Part shown: piece after piece, positions 7,056 to 39,252 of the stretch | Layout: each line of letters begins with the position of its first letter | Numbering within the stretch: the stretch's first letter is position 1 | IMG/VR virus record: IMGVR_UViG_3300027708_000013 | Reading direction: 5' to 3' (one strand) | Source of the DNA: a virus | Taxonomy: Duplodnaviria > Caudoviricetes | DNA: 64,000 bases | Position numbers and translations under genes: made by a program | Notes under the pieces: generated by a model | Told to the model about the DNA's origin: nothing | Databases searched by the model: none | Seen by the model: the letters and a program-made list of their open reading frames with translations, nothing else

Positions 7056-8366
7056 TCATATCTTTTCTCCAATGTCAAATCCACGGAATCCTTTGAATCT
7101 CGGAAACCTCAAACTGAACGATCCGTCTTGATTTTGCGTAACAGCATCTGCACGTACTTCCACAATATTACCGATAAGGTTATCCCGACCGGCCCAATAA
7201 GCAATGCGATCAGCATCTGTAAGTCCGCTTCCGACATTTGTGCTAATAAGTCTACCATCATCTACTCCTTCTACAATTAATGCACCCAGTCGGCCTAGAT
7301 TCTTACCTGTGCCTTCTTCGGTACCCGTCACTGTTAATGATACTTCAATGTACGGCTTGAGTTTAAGCCAAGCCACTGTGCGTTTGCATTGATATCCTGC
7401 CGCAGGGTCTTTGATCATGATGCCTTCGTAACCGCCTGCCACTGCTGATCTATTGATTTCACGAAAGCGAAGTTGTCCTTGCTCGGTGTCTAAATCCACT
7501 AGTTCCTGTGCCAACGCTGTGACATTGGGCATGTGATCCGCAATGGGTTCAATCCACGCACGAAGTTGATTACTGCGTTGATGCTGAGTGCGAACACTGG
7601 CTCCTGACAGAAATTCTTTCAATGTCAGTATATCAAACAGATTCAATACTGCATCTGCACTTTCAATATTGCTTTTGCGATGTACTTGACGCATGAGGTC
7701 TTGGAAGCTCGAACTCATTACTTCACCATCCAACACCATAGGTTCACGAAATAACTTGGCGTGACGTGCAATTTGTTGGCAAATGTGTGGGAAGTTTACC
7801 AGTTCCTTGCCATTACGGCTATACTGATTAACAACCCCGTCTGGATAAACAATAGAGATAACTCTAACGCCGTCCAATTTAACTTCCACGAGCTTTTGGC
7901 CCGAAACCTTTGATTCGTGATTACTGCTATCATGAGCAAGTTGACAACTGAACACAGGGATAATATAATCGACATACGTTTTCTCCACAACAGAATTGAT
8001 TGTTTTTTCACTTACACCACAGCGTAAGTCCTTGATTAAAATTCTACGGTACCACTGATTCCACTCCTGTTCAGTGGCCTTGAGTCTCATGTGATTCACT
8101 GCTGTGATTGCGGCATTGCCAGTCAATCTACGTTGAGATAAATCTTGTGCTGTTTTCCAAAACACATCTGCATTGAGACCTGGACCTGAATCAGACTTGG
8201 TTTCTACCTTTCGAATACCATAAGTGATCATGCTGTCCAGTGCCGCACGGGCTCCACGAAAGAATTCTGTGTTGCCGGCTTTGGCTTCACGTGCCACAAC
8301 AGATTCTTTAAACAAGCGACTGTTATCGCTTTCTAATTCCCCAACAACTTCCCACGGTTTTAACAT
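7056..8366 (-). CDS. ATP-dependent DNA ligase
   Basis: EVKLDGVR adenylation motif, VLDGE, EGIMIK, WLKLK, LRFPRF; AGGAG SD before the ATG at 8366. Confidence 0.95.
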   Translation of the reverse strand: MLKPWEVVGELESDNSRLFKESVVAREAKAGNTEFFRGARAALDSMITYGIRKVETKSDSGPGLNADVFWKTAQDLSQRRLTGNAAITAVNHMRLKATEQEWNQWYRRILIKDLRCGVSEKTINSVVEKTYVDYIIPVFSCQLAHDSSNHESKVSGQKLVEVKLDGVRVISIVYPDGVVNQYSRNGKELVNFPHICQQIARHAKLFREPMVLDGEVMSSSFQDLMRQVHRKSNIESADAVLNLFDILTLKEFLSGASVRTQHQRSNQLRAWIEPIADHMPNVTALAQELVDLDTEQGQLRFREINRSAVAGGYEGIMIKDPAAGYQCKRTVAWLKLKPYIEVSLTVTGTEEGTGKNLGRLGALIVEGVDDGRLISTNVGSGLTDADRIAYWAGRDNLIGNIVEVRADAVTQNQDGSFSLRFPRFKGFRGFDIGEKI

Positions 8367-8395
8367 TTCGGCTCCTAACATTTCACTATACAACT

Positions 8396-10100: not shown

Positions 10101-10223
10101 ATCTATCCTTGTTAAAAAATAAGTGCTGGTTTTTATTTCAAGTCTAAAACCAGCAAAAGCGACATGCGGGTTTCTGGAGTATCAAGGCTCTCCAAGGAAG
10201 GCATCTCCCCATTACAGCCTGGT

Positions 10224-11303: not shown

Positions 11304-12269
11304 TTATTCTATGTTTTTGCTCACGTTTTTAAGCAATTTTAAGGTCTGGGATTGGGTGTTTGCCAACTGCTCAAACGTACCGCCCGGGTTTATAATACCA
11401 ATTGCTTTTAATCTTTCAGCATACACTGGATTTTTAAGTTCTTGATTTATTAAATTGTTGATACGTGCTCTGGCCGAAAGAGGTGTATCTGCAGGTGCAT
11501 ACACGCCATACCAAATGTTTAAGCCCAGTTCTGGATGTAAATTGGACAACACTGGTACAGTTACGGCAGGATTCAATTCATGCACCAGTCTAGAACCTTC
11601 AGGTGTCAGCGCCGCAATGATTTTAATTTTACCCGACATCCAAGCCGGACGCATGGTGCTCAACACATCAAAGGCAAAGTCTACATTGCCGCCTATTAGG
11701 TCTGTCAGTTGTGGTGCACCACCTTTGTAATTGATAATCTGTGGCATAGGTAATTTTTCCAACTTGGCCCACAGTGTAAAGAGATTTGCAGTGTTTTTAT
11801 TCCAGTAGGCCACATTGAACCGTTGAGGATTTTTACGCACATAATCTTTTAGTTCTGCATAGGTGTTGACAGCACTGTTGGCTGGAACAGCCAACACCAT
11901 GGTACTGATGCCCAAGGGTACTACAGGATCAAAACTAGATTCTGTATATTCAATGCCGTCTGATCGAGTCTTGAATGCTATGTTGCTGTCCAAGAATCCA
12001 GTGCCGCCCATGAACAAGGTATGTCCATCAGGCTTGGCCCGTGCCACAAAGTTTGCGGCTATGACAGTGTCTGCCCCGGGTCGATTTACAACCACAGCTC
12101 GCCATCCGTTGTTGGCAAACATTTCCTCGACGATACGAGCAACACGATCACTGTTACCACCCGGCGGGTATGCCACCACAATCTCAATGGGTCGCTTGGT
12201 TGGGTCAAACTCAGCCACAGCTGACAGTGATGTCAATAATGCTATGGCGATGATAATTCTTTTAAACAT
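11304..12269 (-). CDS. Bug/TctC tripartite tricarboxylate transporter substrate-binding protein
   Basis: Signal peptide, YPPGGNSDRVAR, VVNRPGA, PDGHTL, YKGGAPQLTDLIGG, WYGVYAPADTP. Confidence 0.9.
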   Translation of the reverse strand: MFKRIIIAIALLTSLSAVAEFDPTKRPIEIVVAYPPGGNSDRVARIVEEMFANNGWRAVVVNRPGADTVIAANFVARAKPDGHTLFMGGTGFLDSNIAFKTRSDGIEYTESSFDPVVPLGISTMVLAVPANSAVNTYAELKDYVRKNPQRFNVAYWNKNTANLFTLWAKLEKLPMPQIINYKGGAPQLTDLIGGNVDFAFDVLSTMRPAWMSGKIKIIAALTPEGSRLVHELNPAVTVPVLSNLHPELGLNIWYGVYAPADTPLSARARINNLINQELKNPVYAERLKAIGIINPGGTFEQLANTQSQTLKLLKNVSKNIE

Positions 12270-14590: not shown

Positions 14591-14612
14591 AAAAAACCCG
14601 CCGAAGCGGGTT
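14591..14612 (-). terminator. intrinsic terminator of the tmRNA
   Basis: AACCCGC-TTCG-GCGGGTT followed by a T-run. Confidence 0.85.
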
Positions 14613-14921
14613 CTGCTATTTTTGGTAATAAGGTATAACTACCCCAGAGATCATGCCGCTAGGGCGTAAACCTCATCATTAGATGCGTTTGCATTTATCG
14701 ATTTGCTTGATTTACAGTCATCGCCTACTGTGTTGCCGTCTCCATTACCTACCCCTGTCGAAACCATGGCTGGCCCATCAGAAGAAAACTCAGATCCTTT
14801 CACGGTTGGCTCCATTACTGGTTGGCCGCAGTATGCATCCTGCTGAATTTTCTTTTGGTGGACCAGGCGGGAGTCGAACCCGCGTCCAGAAGTCCTTCAC
14901 TTTGAAGGAATTACAACAATT
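14613..14921 (-). ncRNA. ssrA: two-piece (circularly permuted) tmRNA
   Basis: Acceptor piece with T-arm GCGGG-TTCGACT-CCCGC and CTGGTCC-A-CCA ending at 14856 comes first; 5' GGGCCAG starts at 14776 and gives a G3.U70 acceptor stem; tag at 14651-14692 encodes ANASNDEVYALAA*. Confidence 0.92.
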
Positions 14922-14924
14922 CTT

Positions 14925-15071
14925 TTAATTATAACCACGTATGACATTGTTGTCAATGGGTGGATTTGATCTTGCCAATTCTCGTTTAACAGCTTCTTGA
15001 TGTTGCTGTTCTTTTTTCTGCTTGTTCTGTTCAAACTTCTGAAGTATCACAACTTCTTCTTTGTGTGGCAT
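14925..15071 (-). CDS. small hypothetical protein
   Basis: 48 aa, MPHKEEVV...; CTAAATA box 8 nt above the ATG. Confidence 0.45.
   Translation of the reverse strand: MPHKEEVVILQKFEQNKQKKEQQHQEAVKRELARSNPPIDNNVIRGYN
14928..14956 (-). promoter_or_regulatory. consensus sigma70 promoter for the tmRNA
   Basis: TTGACA-17-TATAAT. Confidence 0.9.
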
Positions 15072-15108
15072 AGTATAACTATTTAGTATAGATAAATGCA
15101 GGAGTGTC

Positions 15109-15366
15109 GTATTTCGGAGTCTTCCGCTAAGAAGTCCTTAACCATTGACACGGTTATGTCAGGACTGTGTGATGGTCCACTCAGCCCGCCTAGTCAACAC
15201 GTCTGTCAACGATACCCGTAGTTTCCTCTCCTACACTTACCTATACTAGATAGGATCCCGGGGGGTTCGAGTCTCACCGGGGTCGACATGCAAGTTTTGT
15301 AGACGTTGTTTCAAGCGAGCGAATTTCTTCGCCTCTACCGGAAGGCATCTCCCTTTCGCTGATACC
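15109..15366 (-). ncRNA. unclassified structured RNA candidate
   Basis: At least 8 nested helices found by eye, including long-range CUUCCG/CGGAAG, UCGCUU/AGGCGG and ACGUCU/AGACGU; no ORF of note. Confidence 0.6.
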
Positions 15367-15369
15367 GGC

Positions 15370-15705
15370 TTATTCGCCCATTACTTCCTGTGCAATAGCA
15401 CGAGCCTTAATGGCTTCTAAACTTGGCTTGGCAATTTTGGTCTTGGTTGACTTGACCACTGCTGAACCGTTGTACTTTTCATCAGCGGCATCAATCGCGG
15501 CACGATAATCTGCATTGGCATACAACTCAGTACCTTTTAAGAAAGTTACCAACTCGCCTTTGGTCATTGCTGAAGGCAAATCCATAAGATTGATATCGCT
15601 ATCAGTTTTTGCCAAGATTTTAACACGAGTCATGTCATTCGCAAAACGAACTTTGTACTGACCTTGAGTCTTGCTAACACCACCTACTTTGAACTGTTTG
15701 TCCAT
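15370..15705 (-). CDS. hypothetical protein
   Basis: 111 aa; AGGAG SD; own promoter. Confidence 0.8.
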   Translation of the reverse strand: MDKQFKVGGVSKTQGQYKVRFANDMTRVKILAKTDSDINLMDLPSAMTKGELVTFLKGTELYANADYRAAIDAADEKYNGSAVVKSTKTKIAKPSLEAIKARAIAQEVMGE

Positions 15706-18031: not shown

Positions 18032-20170
18032 TTACATTGTAAACAAGGGTCCGGACAGCACACGGGCACTGTCTTCCACACGTAAGTGACGGTTCAAGTT
18101 TTCAATGAACTTGTCTGTCATGTCTCGATTTCTATAGTATCTTGGGAATATGTGTACTTCAACAGCATCATCGCCTTCCAACTGCAACACCGCTGTCATT
18201 CTATTTCTTCCTTCATGCTGACTCACCTGTGCAGGTTCTGAGAAATCGCCCTGACTCCATGCATCGGGAATGTCCACTGTTAAAAATGGCGAAGCAATGG
18301 CTCCACCGTCGGCAATGTATCGCATGATGGTGGATCGATGGAAATCATTCAAGGGAGCTGCTAACTTCAAGAACACACTGGGTCGCATTTTGACACGCAG
18401 GCCAAAATAGTCCACCTCCATGTTGTGTGGTACAACACCGGCGCCACTGTTGTTGTCAATAACAACTTCGTTGACTGTATTGCTTTGTGATATACGAAAT
18501 ATCGAATACAATATGGGATAGTCATCACTGCCTGTTATGCCTTGTTTGATAGGCTGACCACCGTTTTCTCTAGCAACAAAATCGGCAAACACCTGTTGGA
18601 AAACTTTTTCTGGATCTTCTTGGTAATCACTGCTGGTTTGACAGTCATCTGTAAATCCTTCAAAATGCACACGATATTCACCAAATTCTTCAACTCCAAC
18701 GTCATCGGGAGTAAGCTCGCCAATGAACTCTTCAATTTCCTTCCAATCCATGGTGGATTCTGTTATTTCCTCATCTCCATCAACATCTTCTCTACCTGTG
18801 ACATGTATGTCTCTAGCATGGAATGGAATCCAATCTCCCAGTCTGGGATCATGGATGCTGTCGTAGCCTTGTTCGATCAGACTTGCATATTTTTGCAACA
18901 TATCGTTTGGCTCATCTTTGCCCTTGACAATCACATAGGGATTTTTACATGTCAATGTGGCACTGTATACATAACCATCAGCACCACCTTGTGTGGCATA
19001 GTACTCAGCAGTGTCTCGATCTTCGGTCCACCACATGGGTGTGATTAATTCTCTATGTATGCCACCTTGGTTGCCGTGATACACTGTGACCGGGGCAACT
19101 GCTTGTTCGTTCAACTGCATCTGTTTGGCCACCGCAGTAGCCCGTTCCACGTCCTGCATGTCAAAGGGCTTGAGTTCACCACGCCATATCAGTCGTTTGA
19201 TTTCAGCCCAGTCCATGTCAACAAATTGTGTATCTTCCACACCAACCTCATTGGGGCCCACTAGTTGTTGTTCTGAATCAAATCTTCCTCGACAATCGTA
19301 AGCGGCACCATCGGGAGCCACTGCATACACATGGTCAACTCTATAGTCGTCATCGTCTTCGGCATCTTCATCCCAACCTATGTGGGCACGTAGTTGCCAG
19401 TCTGGGTGTATTCTTTTCAATGCCAGAGCCATCACATGGCAGTGACCCCTCATGTAGTCTTGTTTAGATTCCTTCAGGCTCAATGCTGAATCCTGTTGAT
19501 TTAAATAGGCTTGGTTGAGCTGATCTAAATAACCTTGATTGCGTAGTATTTTAAATGCTAGATTCTCAACACCAAATTCTCCTTCACGGTCCAGGCCCGA
19601 TCTACGCATGATGCGAAGTCGATCTCTAATACGTTTTAAATCCGCAGGATCATCTGCTGTGGCAATGGCCACTGTGATTTGTTTGATGAGATCGGTCACT
19701 TTGGCATTCACTGCTGTGTTGTTGATTGTAGGTGGATTGTATTCAGGTTCTTTGATCCAAGCATCGTTGAGTAAACTGTATACTCCGCCCGACACCGGTG
19801 GGGTGGCTGTATCTTCTATGTACAATTCCACTTCATGTCCACGTATGGAGATGTCGTGTTGATTGTTCCAGATATCTTTTTTGGCACGGTATAATGCTTC
19901 TGCAACATCGTCACATTGCAAGTCATTATAGTTGGTGACCACATGCAGGTCAAAGTCCGAATATTGTGTATAGTTGTAGTTGGCCATACTGCCGGTCAAC
20001 ACTATGTCCTGCACTTCAAAGTTGGGTATTTCTAAATAATGTTCAAATATTTCTGCAATCTTCAACAGGTGTTCACGCACTTCGGGTCTTAGATCATTGC
20101 CACGCCAGGCCACTGGGTTCAACTGTTGATGATAGGCTATGTTGCGTTTGACGAAATCTCGAGCTCGCAT
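18032..20170 (-). CDS. multidomain protein: nucleotidyltransferase, Cys-peptidase-like, ART-like, acidic and ParB-like domains
   Basis: LTGS..YSDFDLH (Pol-beta NTase); GHCHVMALAL/HVY/YD; VYHG...AEYYA...NPY; HEGRNR. Confidence 0.6.
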   Translation of the reverse strand: MRARDFVKRNIAYHQQLNPVAWRGNDLRPEVREHLLKIAEIFEHYLEIPNFEVQDIVLTGSMANYNYTQYSDFDLHVVTNYNDLQCDDVAEALYRAKKDIWNNQHDISIRGHEVELYIEDTATPPVSGGVYSLLNDAWIKEPEYNPPTINNTAVNAKVTDLIKQITVAIATADDPADLKRIRDRLRIMRRSGLDREGEFGVENLAFKILRNQGYLDQLNQAYLNQQDSALSLKESKQDYMRGHCHVMALALKRIHPDWQLRAHIGWDEDAEDDDDYRVDHVYAVAPDGAAYDCRGRFDSEQQLVGPNEVGVEDTQFVDMDWAEIKRLIWRGELKPFDMQDVERATAVAKQMQLNEQAVAPVTVYHGNQGGIHRELITPMWWTEDRDTAEYYATQGGADGYVYSATLTCKNPYVIVKGKDEPNDMLQKYASLIEQGYDSIHDPRLGDWIPFHARDIHVTGREDVDGDEEITESTMDWKEIEEFIGELTPDDVGVEEFGEYRVHFEGFTDDCQTSSDYQEDPEKVFQQVFADFVARENGGQPIKQGITGSDDYPILYSIFRISQSNTVNEVVIDNNSGAGVVPHNMEVDYFGLRVKMRPSVFLKLAAPLNDFHRSTIMRYIADGGAIASPFLTVDIPDAWSQGDFSEPAQVSQHEGRNRMTAVLQLEGDDAVEVHIFPRYYRNRDMTDKFIENLNRHLRVEDSARVLSGPLFTM

Positions 20171-37242: not shown

Positions 37243-39252
37243 TTACTTGCTGGTGGCACGGTAGGTGCCTGACCAGTCTTTAGGCACACCTTCTGCCAAT
37301 CTCAAGCTCATGCTTTTGTAGTACTCAGTTAACTCTGGCGATTGATTCGTACAATACTCTACCATTTGTAGTGCCTTCTTCCAGTTGCCAGCATAGTAGT
37401 GTCTTAAAAACTCTTGATGACCCAATTTAGTTTCAGCCAGTGTATAAATTTTTACACCTTGAGTTTTACCTTTTACAGCAATACAATCTAGTTCGGCTAC
37501 GGGATATGTATCTTTTACCAATTCCGCAGTGCGTTGACCAAGTACAATTTTGACACCGTACGGCTTGCTTTGTCCTTCCAGTCTACTCGCCAAATTGACG
37601 CCATCGCCCAAGCAAGTATAGTCAAAGCGTTGATCAGATCCCATGTTACCCACCACAACACTTGCACTGTTGATGCCAAGCCCCATGCCAAAAGCCGGCA
37701 CACCTTCTGCTGTAATTTCTCTATTAAATTCATCCAAACTCTCCATCATTTCCAACGCTGTGCGTACTGCGTCTACCGCATGTTGTGGGTTATCTAACGG
37801 TGCGTTCCAAAATGCCATCTGTGCATCACCAATGTATTTGTCCAGTGTGCCTTTGTTCTCAAGTATACGTTTGGTCATTGCTGTCATGTAACGATTCATG
37901 ATCTTTGTAAGACCCTGTACATCTGCTCCGTAATGTTCACTAATGGTGGTGAATCCACGCACATCGGTAAACATGATGGACAGTTCACGTTCCTCACCAC
38001 CCAAGGTCAACAGTTCTGGTTGACGCTGTAACTGTGCCACTAGGTCCGGACTTAGATAAGTTCCAAACTGCCGTTTAATCTGTTGTTTTTGTAGGAACTC
38101 GCTTACAAATTTAACACCATAGGCATGAAGCATAACCAGTACAAGGCCAGCGACCAAACCAGTAACATCAATAAGCCAATGGTACTGCGAGTAAGCCAAC
38201 TGGCTAGCAAAAACAACCCCCACAACAACCCCCACACTAGATATGATTCCCACATACATCCACCTCGTTAAAAATAGTAGTACTACTGCCAACACAGCCA
38301 ATCCCGCAAGTTCTGCACCATCTGCCCAAGCGGGTCTTTGTATATTTACACCACGAGCCACAGTTGCTATTACTGCAGCCTGTACGTCTTGTGGCCACAC
38401 AGCACCCACAGCAGTGGGCACTGGATTTGCTATGCCCGCGGCCGTAACCCCCACTATCACTATAGAATTATCGAACGTGTTGGGCAAATCTGTCATACTG
38501 ACCGCACGACTGCGTTGACTCCAGTCAATCCAAATTCTTCCTGACCTGTCAGTGTCAAGTATGCCTATACCACCGGGTCCACGCATCTTTTCAATACCCA
38601 ACTCACTCATTTTGATTTGAAAGTTAGTGTTGCCCTCTGCTGTCATCAGTGTGGCTAAACTGGCAGATGGATACAAGTTGCCATCAATTGCTACTACCAA
38701 GGGCATGCGACGAACAACACCATCAATTTCTGGCAGTGTGTTAACTATGCCCGAGCTTGCCGCAGCAAACTCTAAAGCAGGAATGTTTGCTATCATGCCG
38801 GGATAAGTGACTATGAGTTCGCCGTGATTGCTTCCAATAACGCTGGAGCCGGGTGGGCGTGGTGTGTTTTTATTTTGACCTGCAGGAATGTTGCTGAGTA
38901 CTACCGGATACTTCTTCAATACTTGAATCAGTGCGGCATCACCACCGGATCTATCCCGTTCACTCATTACAATGTTAAACACCACTAAGCCGGCACCTCT
39001 TTTGTAAAGGTCTCGGATCAAGTCAGCATACACACGCCGATCAAAAGGATACTGCCCATGCTGTGCTAGTGCGGCTTCGTCTATATTAATTGTGTAAATG
39101 TTGTTTAGTGTGGGTGCTTTGGCAGTGATTACAGTGTCAAAATATCTTAGTCTTACACTTTCAACAAATGTAGGATCTGCAATTCTAACGGCCAACACTA
39201 GTGCCAGTGTAAGCAAGGCTGTCCAAGGTGAGGTTAATATTTTTTTCATCAT
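37243..39252 (-). CDS. CHASE2-domain class III adenylate/guanylate cyclase
   Basis: INIDEAAL...PFDR (CHASE2), three TM helices, MFTDVRGFT, DKYIGDA, YTCLGDGVNLASRLE. Confidence 0.93.
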   Translation of the reverse strand: MMKKILTSPWTALLTLALVLAVRIADPTFVESVRLRYFDTVITAKAPTLNNIYTINIDEAALAQHGQYPFDRRVYADLIRDLYKRGAGLVVFNIVMSERDRSGGDAALIQVLKKYPVVLSNIPAGQNKNTPRPPGSSVIGSNHGELIVTYPGMIANIPALEFAAASSGIVNTLPEIDGVVRRMPLVVAIDGNLYPSASLATLMTAEGNTNFQIKMSELGIEKMRGPGGIGILDTDRSGRIWIDWSQRSRAVSMTDLPNTFDNSIVIVGVTAAGIANPVPTAVGAVWPQDVQAAVIATVARGVNIQRPAWADGAELAGLAVLAVVLLFLTRWMYVGIISSVGVVVGVVFASQLAYSQYHWLIDVTGLVAGLVLVMLHAYGVKFVSEFLQKQQIKRQFGTYLSPDLVAQLQRQPELLTLGGEERELSIMFTDVRGFTTISEHYGADVQGLTKIMNRYMTAMTKRILENKGTLDKYIGDAQMAFWNAPLDNPQHAVDAVRTALEMMESLDEFNREITAEGVPAFGMGLGINSASVVVGNMGSDQRFDYTCLGDGVNLASRLEGQSKPYGVKIVLGQRTAELVKDTYPVAELDCIAVKGKTQGVKIYTLAETKLGHQEFLRHYYAGNWKKALQMVEYCTNQSPELTEYYKSMSLRLAEGVPKDWSGTYRATSK

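Follow-up and report, generated by a model that had tools for sequence, protein, structure and literature searches.

Two pseudoknotted RNA families associated with tRNA and tmRNA genes of uncultured phages

The virus record IMGVR_UViG_3300027708_000013 (Duplodnaviria; Caudoviricetes) from the IMG/VR database represents a large uncultured freshwater (lake) phage. The stretch of its DNA analysed here, referred to as the window, is 64,000 nucleotides (nt) long. The subject is a segment of the minus strand at 15109-15366, upstream of the transfer-messenger RNA (tmRNA) gene, which an initial annotation had described as one unclassified, highly structured RNA of about 260 nt. Comparison with relatives resolves this flagged stretch into two predicted minus-strand genes for separate small RNAs, which belong to different families. 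These are named module A and module B. The two modules are independent of each other, their folds are pseudoknotted and kept by compensatory changes, and they lie on the strand of the transfer RNA (tRNA) genes at tRNA-like spacing. A and B are two uncatalogued families that are found mainly in the tRNA gene clusters of uncultured phages.

Two modules in the flagged stretch

Similarity to the flagged stretch is found in pieces, in four lineages of IMG/VR relatives (loci are numbered with the prefix L). Module B, which makes up the 3' two-thirds, has counterparts in L001, L003, and L005; the counterparts of module A, the 5' third, are in L003 and L005. The modules are arranged as A-B in the window, as B-A in L003, and as A followed by a third module, C, and then B in L005, where 300 nt separate A from B. 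L001 contains B alone. Because relatives can have either module alone or both, in either order, A and B are independent units, and only four distinct loci with A are found among the more than 60 B loci. Their spacing in the window equals the tight spacing of genes in phage tRNA arrays. The RNA is structured and phage-encoded, as first annotated, but the single unit of ~260 nt is replaced by two independent RNA genes.

The flagged stretch is bounded by the stop codon of a gene for a 111-amino-acid (aa) protein (15370) and by a small open reading frame (ORF) together with the tmRNA gene (Table 1). It had been described as non-coding and as richer in G+C than its flanks, and both descriptions are confirmed. 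The ORFs that overlap it are of chance size (at most 41 aa), and the G+C content is 0.49-0.53 over about 15100-15400 versus about 0.35-0.45 in the flanks. Stability against shuffled controls depends on the borders used. The annotated span has a minimum free energy (MFE) close to that of its shuffles (z -0.47 on the minus strand, -0.25 on the plus strand), because its 3' border at 15109 removes the 3' strand of the 21-bp closing stem of B (15084-15104). With the correct borders, module B of the window has an MFE of -63.5 kcal/mol (z -5.14), and 0 of 200 shuffles are equally stable. By the MFE criterion that the initial annotation gave for its own refutation, the annotated span would be rejected, but this poor result is an artefact of wrong borders.

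Nine helices had been drawn by hand, and the sole survivor is the hairpin GCGAA-GAAA-UUCGC, which is helix Pc of module A. The proposed closing helix GUAU/AUAC joins the outer edges of the span, so it pairs the A side with the B side. The helices GGAG/CUCC, CUUCCG/CGGAAG, UCGCUU/AGGCGG, ACGUCU/AGACGU, and GUCGAC/GUUGAC likewise pair a strand of A with a strand of B, and both strands have covarying local partners. The hairpin CCUAU/AUAGG competes with the closing stem of B, and AGUCCU/AGGACU competes with helices P5 and P7 of B.

The absence of a known family, also noted initially, holds in wider searches. At gathering thresholds, Rfam 15 matches only the tmRNA in the whole window. At E<=10, the flagged region and the homologous regions of L003 and L005 give only chance matches to unrelated families. 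The best of these is a mascRNA-like minihelix on the plus strand at 15254-15284 (22.4 bits, E 0.04), composed of an acceptor-like stem stacked on a T-arm-like hairpin. The conserved Pd hairpin of A is its reverse complement, and the resemblance is most likely a coincidence. ARAGORN reports no cloverleaf on the strand of the flagged stretch, only the tmRNA. No mimic of a T-arm or acceptor is found on the transcribed strand, and the sole T-arm-like match is on the opposite strand. Nothing supports the loose echo of group I P3/P7 in the initial annotation. Resemblances to RNase P and group I RNAs, seen by eye in the A and C stretch of L003 and L005, were also rejected, with no Rfam support at E<=10. 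BLAST of the flagged region and two other B variants against GenBank phages (50,697 records) gives no match, and full-text literature searches found no paper that describes the A or B family.

Table 1. Features of the window and of related loci (positions are those of the window unless a locus is named; helices are given as 5' strand / 3' strand)
Feature	Position	Strand	Description
111-aa gene	15370-15705	-	conserved in 29 related IMG/VR loci
Flagged stretch	15109-15366	-	follows the 111-aa gene
Module A	15255-15362	-	~108-nt double-pseudoknot RNA
A P1	15360-15355 / 15319-15314	-	5' helix; comparative structure
A Pa	15353-15349 / 15344-15340	-	hairpin; comparative structure
A PK1 (Pb)	15338-15333 / 15304-15299	-	first pseudoknot; crosses P1
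A Pc	15331-15329 / 15322-15320	-	variable hairpin, GAAA-capped here; comparative structure
A PK2	15289-15285 / 15273-15269	-	second pseudoknot; Pd loop with the segment immediately 5' of Pd
A Pd	15282-15275 / 15264-15256	-	hairpin; comparative structure
A-B spacer	15251-15254	-	paired ends of the modules 5-6 nt apart
Module B	15082-15250	-	169 nt; 21-bp closing stem around a pseudoknotted core
B closing stem	15248-15228 / 15104-15084	-	comparative structure
B P2	15218-15216 / 15153-15151	-	comparative structure
B P3	15214-15211 / 15160-15157	-	comparative structure
B P4	15210-15193	-	hairpin with conserved GACG loop; comparative structure
B P5	15187-15182 / 15167-15162	-	comparative structure
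B pseudoknot	15176-15172 / 15145-15141	-	P5 loop with a downstream segment
B P6	15149-15147 / 15108-15106	-	comparative structure
B P7/P8	15137-15116	-	hairpin; comparative structure
48-aa ORF	14925-15071	-	follows the flagged stretch
Permuted two-piece tmRNA gene	14591-14970	-	RF01850, 157.8 bits; RF04321, 138.5 bits; ARAGORN tag ANASNDEVYALAA
tRNA-Glu then B, overlapping	L089:9477-9634; L062:8952-9110; L049:1135-1290; L073:10245-10398; others		
Module C	L003:3660-3885; L005:3640-3853		structured stretch beyond A

Module B

Module B is composed of a long closing helix around a pseudoknotted core. A first alignment of four copies has compensatory changes at 23 of 51 predicted pairs, and a covariance model, R1, was built from it. 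R1 scores the B of the window at 166.8 bits (E 2e-41) on the minus strand and at 21.4 bits on the plus strand, in line with the minus-strand structure first annotated. In 44 sequences, 96% of the cells of the 51-pair structure are paired versus 68.5% after column shuffles, and 42 of the 51 pairs have changes in both partners. This structure has a covariation score of 0.63, versus 0.18 for shuffled columns and about 0.1 with partners slid by 1-3 columns.

The pseudoknot emerged from a scan for further covarying columns, and both partners have changed in four of its five pairs. With the pseudoknot included (alignment A4, n=44), 95.9% of cells are paired versus 69.1% shuffled, changes in both partners are found at 45 of 55 pairs, and the covariation score is 0.613, versus 0.175 shuffled and about 0.08 with slid partners. 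The helices also have a strand bias, with 176 G-U/U-G cells versus 44 A-C/C-A cells. The closing helix has about 20 model pairs and is conserved in length and variable in sequence. The invariant nucleotides lie in loops and junctions, i.e., GGGUAUCGUU, the GACG loop, CUGAUAUAAC, and UAAAU.

Members of the family were collected with a loose pattern taken from the conserved core, GGTATCGTT followed by four bases and GACG. An earlier, over-strict pattern had returned the known loci and one chance match inside a coding region, in L034. The loose pattern occurs in 96 stretches of IMG/VR, and R1 confirms 50 of the first 76 loci and 10 of 16 others at 60-164 bits. Altogether, R1 matches more than 60 IMG/VR loci at 60-175 bits with one copy per locus, and the 64-kb window likewise contains exactly one. 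In 185,579 bacterial and archaeal genomes, the same pattern gives chance matches only, with no true B among the 80 matches listed. True B is thus found in about 60 of 96 pattern matches in viral contigs versus 0 of the 80 listed from bacteria and archaea, and by this test B appears to be phage-specific.

Most B loci are tRNA gene arrays. Of 53 B loci, 49 have tRNA or tmRNA genes predicted by ARAGORN, with a maximum of 28 in one locus, and all these genes are on the strand of B. The next tRNA starts between -6 and +6 nt from the 3' end of B in 26 of the 53 loci. In 11 of the 53, the preceding tRNA, usually tRNA-Glu, overlaps the first 4-7 nt of B. The CCA of the overlapping tRNA is the start of the B closing stem and pairs with UGG at the 3' end of B, and the acceptor end of that tRNA would therefore be sequestered by the B helix in the precursor. 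Within the window's lineage, L097 (at 65 nt), L001, and L107 have B upstream of tmRNA.

One B locus also carries a larger known RNA. In L073, a GOLLD RNA (RF02032, 198 bits) with a tRNA-Thr inside it lies on the minus strand at 7933-8393, in the same tRNA array as the B copy. The distance between GOLLD and B is 1.9 kb, with tRNAs in between.

Module A

Module A is a smaller RNA with two pseudoknots. A model of three copies (R2), one of them from the window, scores the A of the window at 94.4 bits, and a model with nine seed sequences (R3), again including that of the window, scores it at 85 bits (E 3e-17). When the A of the window is the sole query, nhmmer finds L003 (E 2e-5). The family was collected by two pattern scans of IMG/VR and one metagenome scan and comprises 31 copies, of which 15 are distinct. 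The exact 31-mer of the Pd hairpin in the window is absent from IMG/VR.

In a model-fitted alignment of the 15 distinct sequences (alignment A10), 92.3% of cells are paired versus 78.0% shuffled. Changes on both sides are found at 19 of 33 pairs versus 9.8 in shuffles, and 0 of 500 shuffles reach 19. The covariation score is 0.385, versus 0.128 shuffled and 0.06-0.11 with slid partners; over both families, the scores with slid partners are 0.06-0.12. One pseudoknot pair is divided between GC (8) and CG (7). P1 is changed on both sides at four of six pairs, and Pb is mostly invariant, with one of six. A pairing between the Pa and Pd loops was dropped, since the segment 5' of Pd covaries better with the Pd loop. 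Pc is capped by GAAA or GUAA in many members, and the ACAAGUGC and CCCAAAACC loops are invariant in most. Covariation among homologues, named in the initial annotation as a check on the structure, is thus abundant in both families.

A is found in 30 loci, mostly without B. It starts 3-4 nt after a tRNA in 13 of the 30. In 12 loci it lies 3 nt after tRNA-Met, with only two distinct A sequences among them. In L129, A is preceded by tRNA-Asp, and in L129, L134, and L136 it exactly fills the gap between tRNA-Asp and tRNA-Met. All tRNAs in A loci are on the strand of A. Some lineages, e.g., L256 and L258, have a U-run after the last hairpin of A or after a hairpin just beyond it, and in these lineages A is placed at the end of the transcription unit.

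A weak A-like element is located elsewhere in the window, at 10123-10219 on the minus strand between two minus-strand ORFs. It scores 23 bits with R2 and is not found by R3. The exact 14-mer GGGAGATGCCTTCC and GCATGTCG are shared with module A. This element has no Pc hairpin and ends as a stem plus U-run terminator.

Neighboring genes and transcription

On the minus strand, the order is the 111-aa ORF, the flagged stretch, the 48-aa ORF, and the tmRNA gene. A promoter scan places a promoter-like site at 15793-15765, ahead of the 111-aa gene, and module A begins 8 nt past the stop codon of that gene. A lake metatranscriptome library contains a 375-nt contig identical to 15322-15696, a stretch with the 111-aa gene and the 5'-most ~40 nt of A. 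Assembled contigs of this one RNA library reveal neither strand nor ends, and the contig is compatible with read-through from the 111-aa gene into A. No contig of the same library covers B or the remainder of A, and this absence is evidence in neither direction.

The tmRNA has its own perfect promoter, TTGACA-17-TATAAT, at 14956-14928. As the downstream neighbor of the modules in the window, it occupies the place that a tRNA has in other phages. The C-terminus of the 48-aa ORF (NP.ID.N..GYN-stop) is conserved in L001 and L003. The -35 and -10 hexamers of the tmRNA promoter fall on these codons, and the conservation may thus belong to the promoter and not to the protein.

In most of the 29 loci with the 111-aa gene, a permuted tmRNA lies downstream at a distance of 5 to 2156 nt, and the intergenic space is therefore widely variable. 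The 111-aa protein belongs to no Pfam or PHROG family, and a feature search of the ESM Atlas gives only unnamed viral clusters. A fold search of the PDB has no match at E<=0.001, and none of these results points to a partner. The AlphaFold model has three strands plus helices at moderate confidence (predicted local distance difference test, pLDDT, 73). From its gene neighborhood, the protein is a candidate tmRNA-linked factor.

Relatives have an insertion hotspot between the 111-aa gene and tmRNA. Depending on the relative, it is empty or contains RNA modules or inserted protein genes, and in L025-L029 the tmRNA directly follows the 111-aa gene after a gap of 5 nt. The insert in L008 (3379-5234) encodes a Gcw_chp protein and a PstS-like phosphate-binding protein, and that in L014 (3672-4040) encodes a DUF805 protein. 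L020 (3930-4700) has a SegE-like GIY-YIG homing endonuclease; segB is a comparable gene in the tRNA cluster of phage T4.

Module C is a third independent structured module of ~215 nt and is G+C-rich. Besides L003 and L005, it is found in L078, L071, L112, L036, L062, L063, L040, L075, L110, and L072. C follows A in L003, L128, and L275 and directly precedes B in L063 and L071. It stands alone in many phage tRNA arrays and is absent from the window. No Rfam family matches C.

Other genes of the window include DNA ligase, ribonucleotide reductase, radical-SAM, and other accessory genes. Three minus-strand genes are unusual cargo for a phage. They encode a TctC-family tricarboxylate-transport receptor (11304-12269), a CHASE2-adenylate/guanylate cyclase (37243-39252), and a 712-aa protein with a nucleotidyltransferase (NTP_transf_2) domain (18032-20170). 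The last of these is a few kb upstream of the RNA genes.

Comparison with known RNAs

The RNAs closest in kind to A and B are species 1 and 2 of phage T4 (rnaC, 139 nt; rnaD, 119 nt). Both are stable processed non-coding RNAs whose genes form the end of the tRNA cluster, share the strand of the tRNAs, and lie a few nt from a neighboring tRNA (AF158101 annotation). A and B similarly lie in a tRNA or tmRNA transcription unit on the same strand, which in the window is beside the tmRNA. In contrast, rnaC ends in a tRNA-like T-arm, and neither A nor B has one. The B model run with filters off finds nothing above 8 bits in the T4 tRNA region, and nhmmer profiles of A and B do not match rnaC or rnaD.

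GOLLD and ROOL (RF02032, RF03087) are complex pseudoknotted RNAs of phages and prophages, located in or near tRNA islands (PMC12286853). They resemble A and B as pseudoknotted phage RNAs with a tRNA-island habitat. However, they are 3-5 times larger and form multimeric cages, and their Rfam models do not match A or B at any threshold.

HDV-like ribozymes, named after hepatitis delta virus (HDV), form P1.1 between L3 and J1/4, and their P1 opens with G-U at the cleavage site. The catalytic cytosine is the first position of J4/2, and a change from C to U inactivates the ribozyme (PMC10879173). The theta ribozymes are HDV-like ribozymes of gut phages that lie within 5 nt of tRNAs, and three main partners, including tRNA-Met, together make up over 70% (Kienbeck et al. 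2024; PMC10879173). Module A is similar in being small, pseudoknotted, and a few nt from phage tRNAs. Its nested double pseudoknot follows the HDV-like order (P1, Pb, Pc, P1', Pb') in 15 sequences. The 9-nt strand between the 3' strands of P1 and Pb, where the catalytic cytosine would be expected, lacks a conserved C and is entirely free of C in L005, L128, L275, L295, and L280. The Pc loops are GAAA, GUAA, CUA, and UAUAA (3-5 nt) and P1 starts with A-U in 14 of 15 sequences, so that neither P1.1 nor the opening G-U is present. A also differs from theta ribozymes in its two extra hairpins, its second pseudoknot, and its size (~110 nt versus ~60-70 nt). The initial annotation had inferred a novel phage ncRNA or a ribozyme; A has the nested topology of the HDV-like class but lacks its catalytic cytosine and P1.1.

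The bacterial Y RNA YrlA is composed of a long terminal stem plus a tRNA-like module. B resembles it in the long terminal stem, but has no T-arm and no Rfam match at E<=10.

A survey of IMG/VR reported 8,495 covariation-supported RNA candidates, which are unnamed, and five of them partly overlap predictions of tRNA-Tyr, -Asp, -Cys, or -Arg (Fremin et al. 2023; PMC10690425). This overlap at the edge of a tRNA is of the same kind as that of B. The text of PMC10690425 gives no structure, name, or function attributable to the A or B family, and A or B may be among the 8,495 candidates.

Proposed role and alternative explanations

A and B are probably, though by no means certainly, passenger RNA genes of tRNA/tmRNA transcription units that are processed into stable trans-acting RNAs. 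Any particular target is much less probable. Both would be transcribed as part of polycistrons of the tRNA/tmRNA type. In the window, transcription would start from the promoter-like site at 15793-15765, pass through the 111-aa gene, and possibly continue towards the tmRNA. Host RNA-processing enzymes would then release discrete, stable RNAs of about 110 and 170 nt. In tRNA arrays, the RNase P cut at the 5' end of the next tRNA and the 3' trimming of the previous tRNA would set the module ends. RNase III cuts helices of about the length of the 21-bp helix of B, as in ribosomal RNA precursors. In the window, a cut by this enzyme in the B helix, together with endonuclease cuts in the short spacers, may take the place of tRNA processing. 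The released RNAs would act in trans on tRNAs or the translation apparatus. Many unpaired nucleotides are invariant, which suggests a specific partner, and the invariant loop and junction nucleotides are candidate binding surfaces for a host or phage factor.

Several points weigh against this proposal. The A of the window is the most divergent member of its family, with a Pa loop of 4 nt and not 6 and a shorter Pd loop. Its fold is no more stable than shuffles (z -0.15); the support for A comes from comparison with relatives, and the structure was drawn from part of the same sequences in which changes were counted. Neither module in the window has a flanking tRNA, and the processing route there is thus putative. 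Discrete, stable species of A and B are likewise presumed, as the RNA data consist of one contig with the 111-aa gene and ~40 nt of A. In L256, L258, and the weak copy in the window, A could instead have a cis-acting role as a 3'-end or terminator element. A broader idea, possible but tentative, is that A, B, and C are founders of new phage RNA classes that are released by tRNA maturation and manipulate host tRNAs or translation, or that one of them is a new ribozyme. Examples of such roles would be decoys for tRNA-targeting defense nucleases or binders of a processing or translation factor.

A cis-acting role could extend to the whole arrangement, with the modules serving as a stabilizer, attenuator, or riboswitch-like element in the 3' untranslated region of the 111-aa gene or in the leader of the small ORF and tmRNA. 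The 8-nt distance from the 111-aa stop codon and the RNA contig that spans this gene into A agree with this, as do the terminator-like last hairpin and U-run of A in L256 and L258 and the A-like copy at 10123-10219, which lies between two genes with a terminator at its end. It is nevertheless unlikely. Most copies of B and many of A have tRNA genes on both sides and are far from ORFs, and no known riboswitch class matches (Rfam, E<=10). The 111-aa gene does not need A or B, because its relatives have a bare 5-nt gap before tmRNA (L025-L029) or unrelated inserts. Self-cleavage is another explanation, in which A trims the 3' trailer of the preceding tRNA by cutting at its own 5' end and B cuts near one of its ends. 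In 13 of 30 loci, A begins 3-4 nt downstream of a tRNA, a location reminiscent of theta ribozymes, which lie at most 5 nt from tRNAs and have tRNA-Met as a main partner (PMC10879173). The strand order of P1, Pb, and Pc in A is that of P1, P2, and P3 in HDV, and B abuts tRNAs on either side. Yet the junction for the catalytic cytosine is free of C in at least four distinct sequences (UAAUAAAGA, AUAUAAAGA, UUAGAAAGA), the Pc loop of 3-5 nt, often a GNRA tetraloop, leaves no L3 or P1.1, and P1 opens with A-U and not G-U. No HDV-like, hammerhead, twister, pistol, or hatchet family matches at E<=10 in Rfam, host RNase P already cuts tRNA 5' ends, and in the window neither module contacts a tRNA. 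Self-cleavage is accordingly judged improbable.

Two further explanations concern the nature of the stretch itself. A feature at the DNA level might account for the plus-strand minihelix (mascRNA, 22.4 bits) and for the 21-bp inverted repeat that bounds B. It could be a plus-strand attachment site or fragment of a tRNA gene, or else a miniature inverted-repeat element with the two strands of the closing stem as its terminal inverted repeats. The minihelix, however, is the complement of the Pd hairpin, whose loop covaries with an upstream segment. Mismatches in the B helices are four times more often G-U on the tRNA strand than A-C, there is one B per locus with no second copy in the 64-kb window, and the internal helices and pseudoknot covary, which a DNA repeat would not require. 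This explanation is very improbable. The same is true, at least as strongly, of a single RNA of ~260 nt with end-to-end closing helices. The ends of the span do have short stretches complementary to each other in this one sequence, but the span has a z of only -0.47, A and B occur separately and in both orders, and each cross-module helix competes with a covarying local helix.

Significance

That stable RNAs, e.g., species 1 and 2 of T4, are encoded in phage tRNA clusters has been known for fifty years. To our knowledge, no role has been established for these two RNAs, GOLLD, or ROOL. Passenger RNAs of phage tRNA clusters are thus already known as a phenomenon, and A and B are new families of that kind. 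For two more tRNA-cluster RNA families, the exact borders, the pseudoknotted consensus structure, and tens of natural variants are now defined. Both behave as cassettes that are shuffled and accompany either tRNA arrays or a phage tmRNA gene, and this behavior points to a general class of RNAs that are co-processed with tRNAs. The long closing stem of B, conserved in length, and its pairing with the CCA of the neighboring tRNA are concrete features for processing. If a function is found for these RNAs, such as anti-defense, translation control, or catalysis, it would have a bearing on many large aquatic phages.

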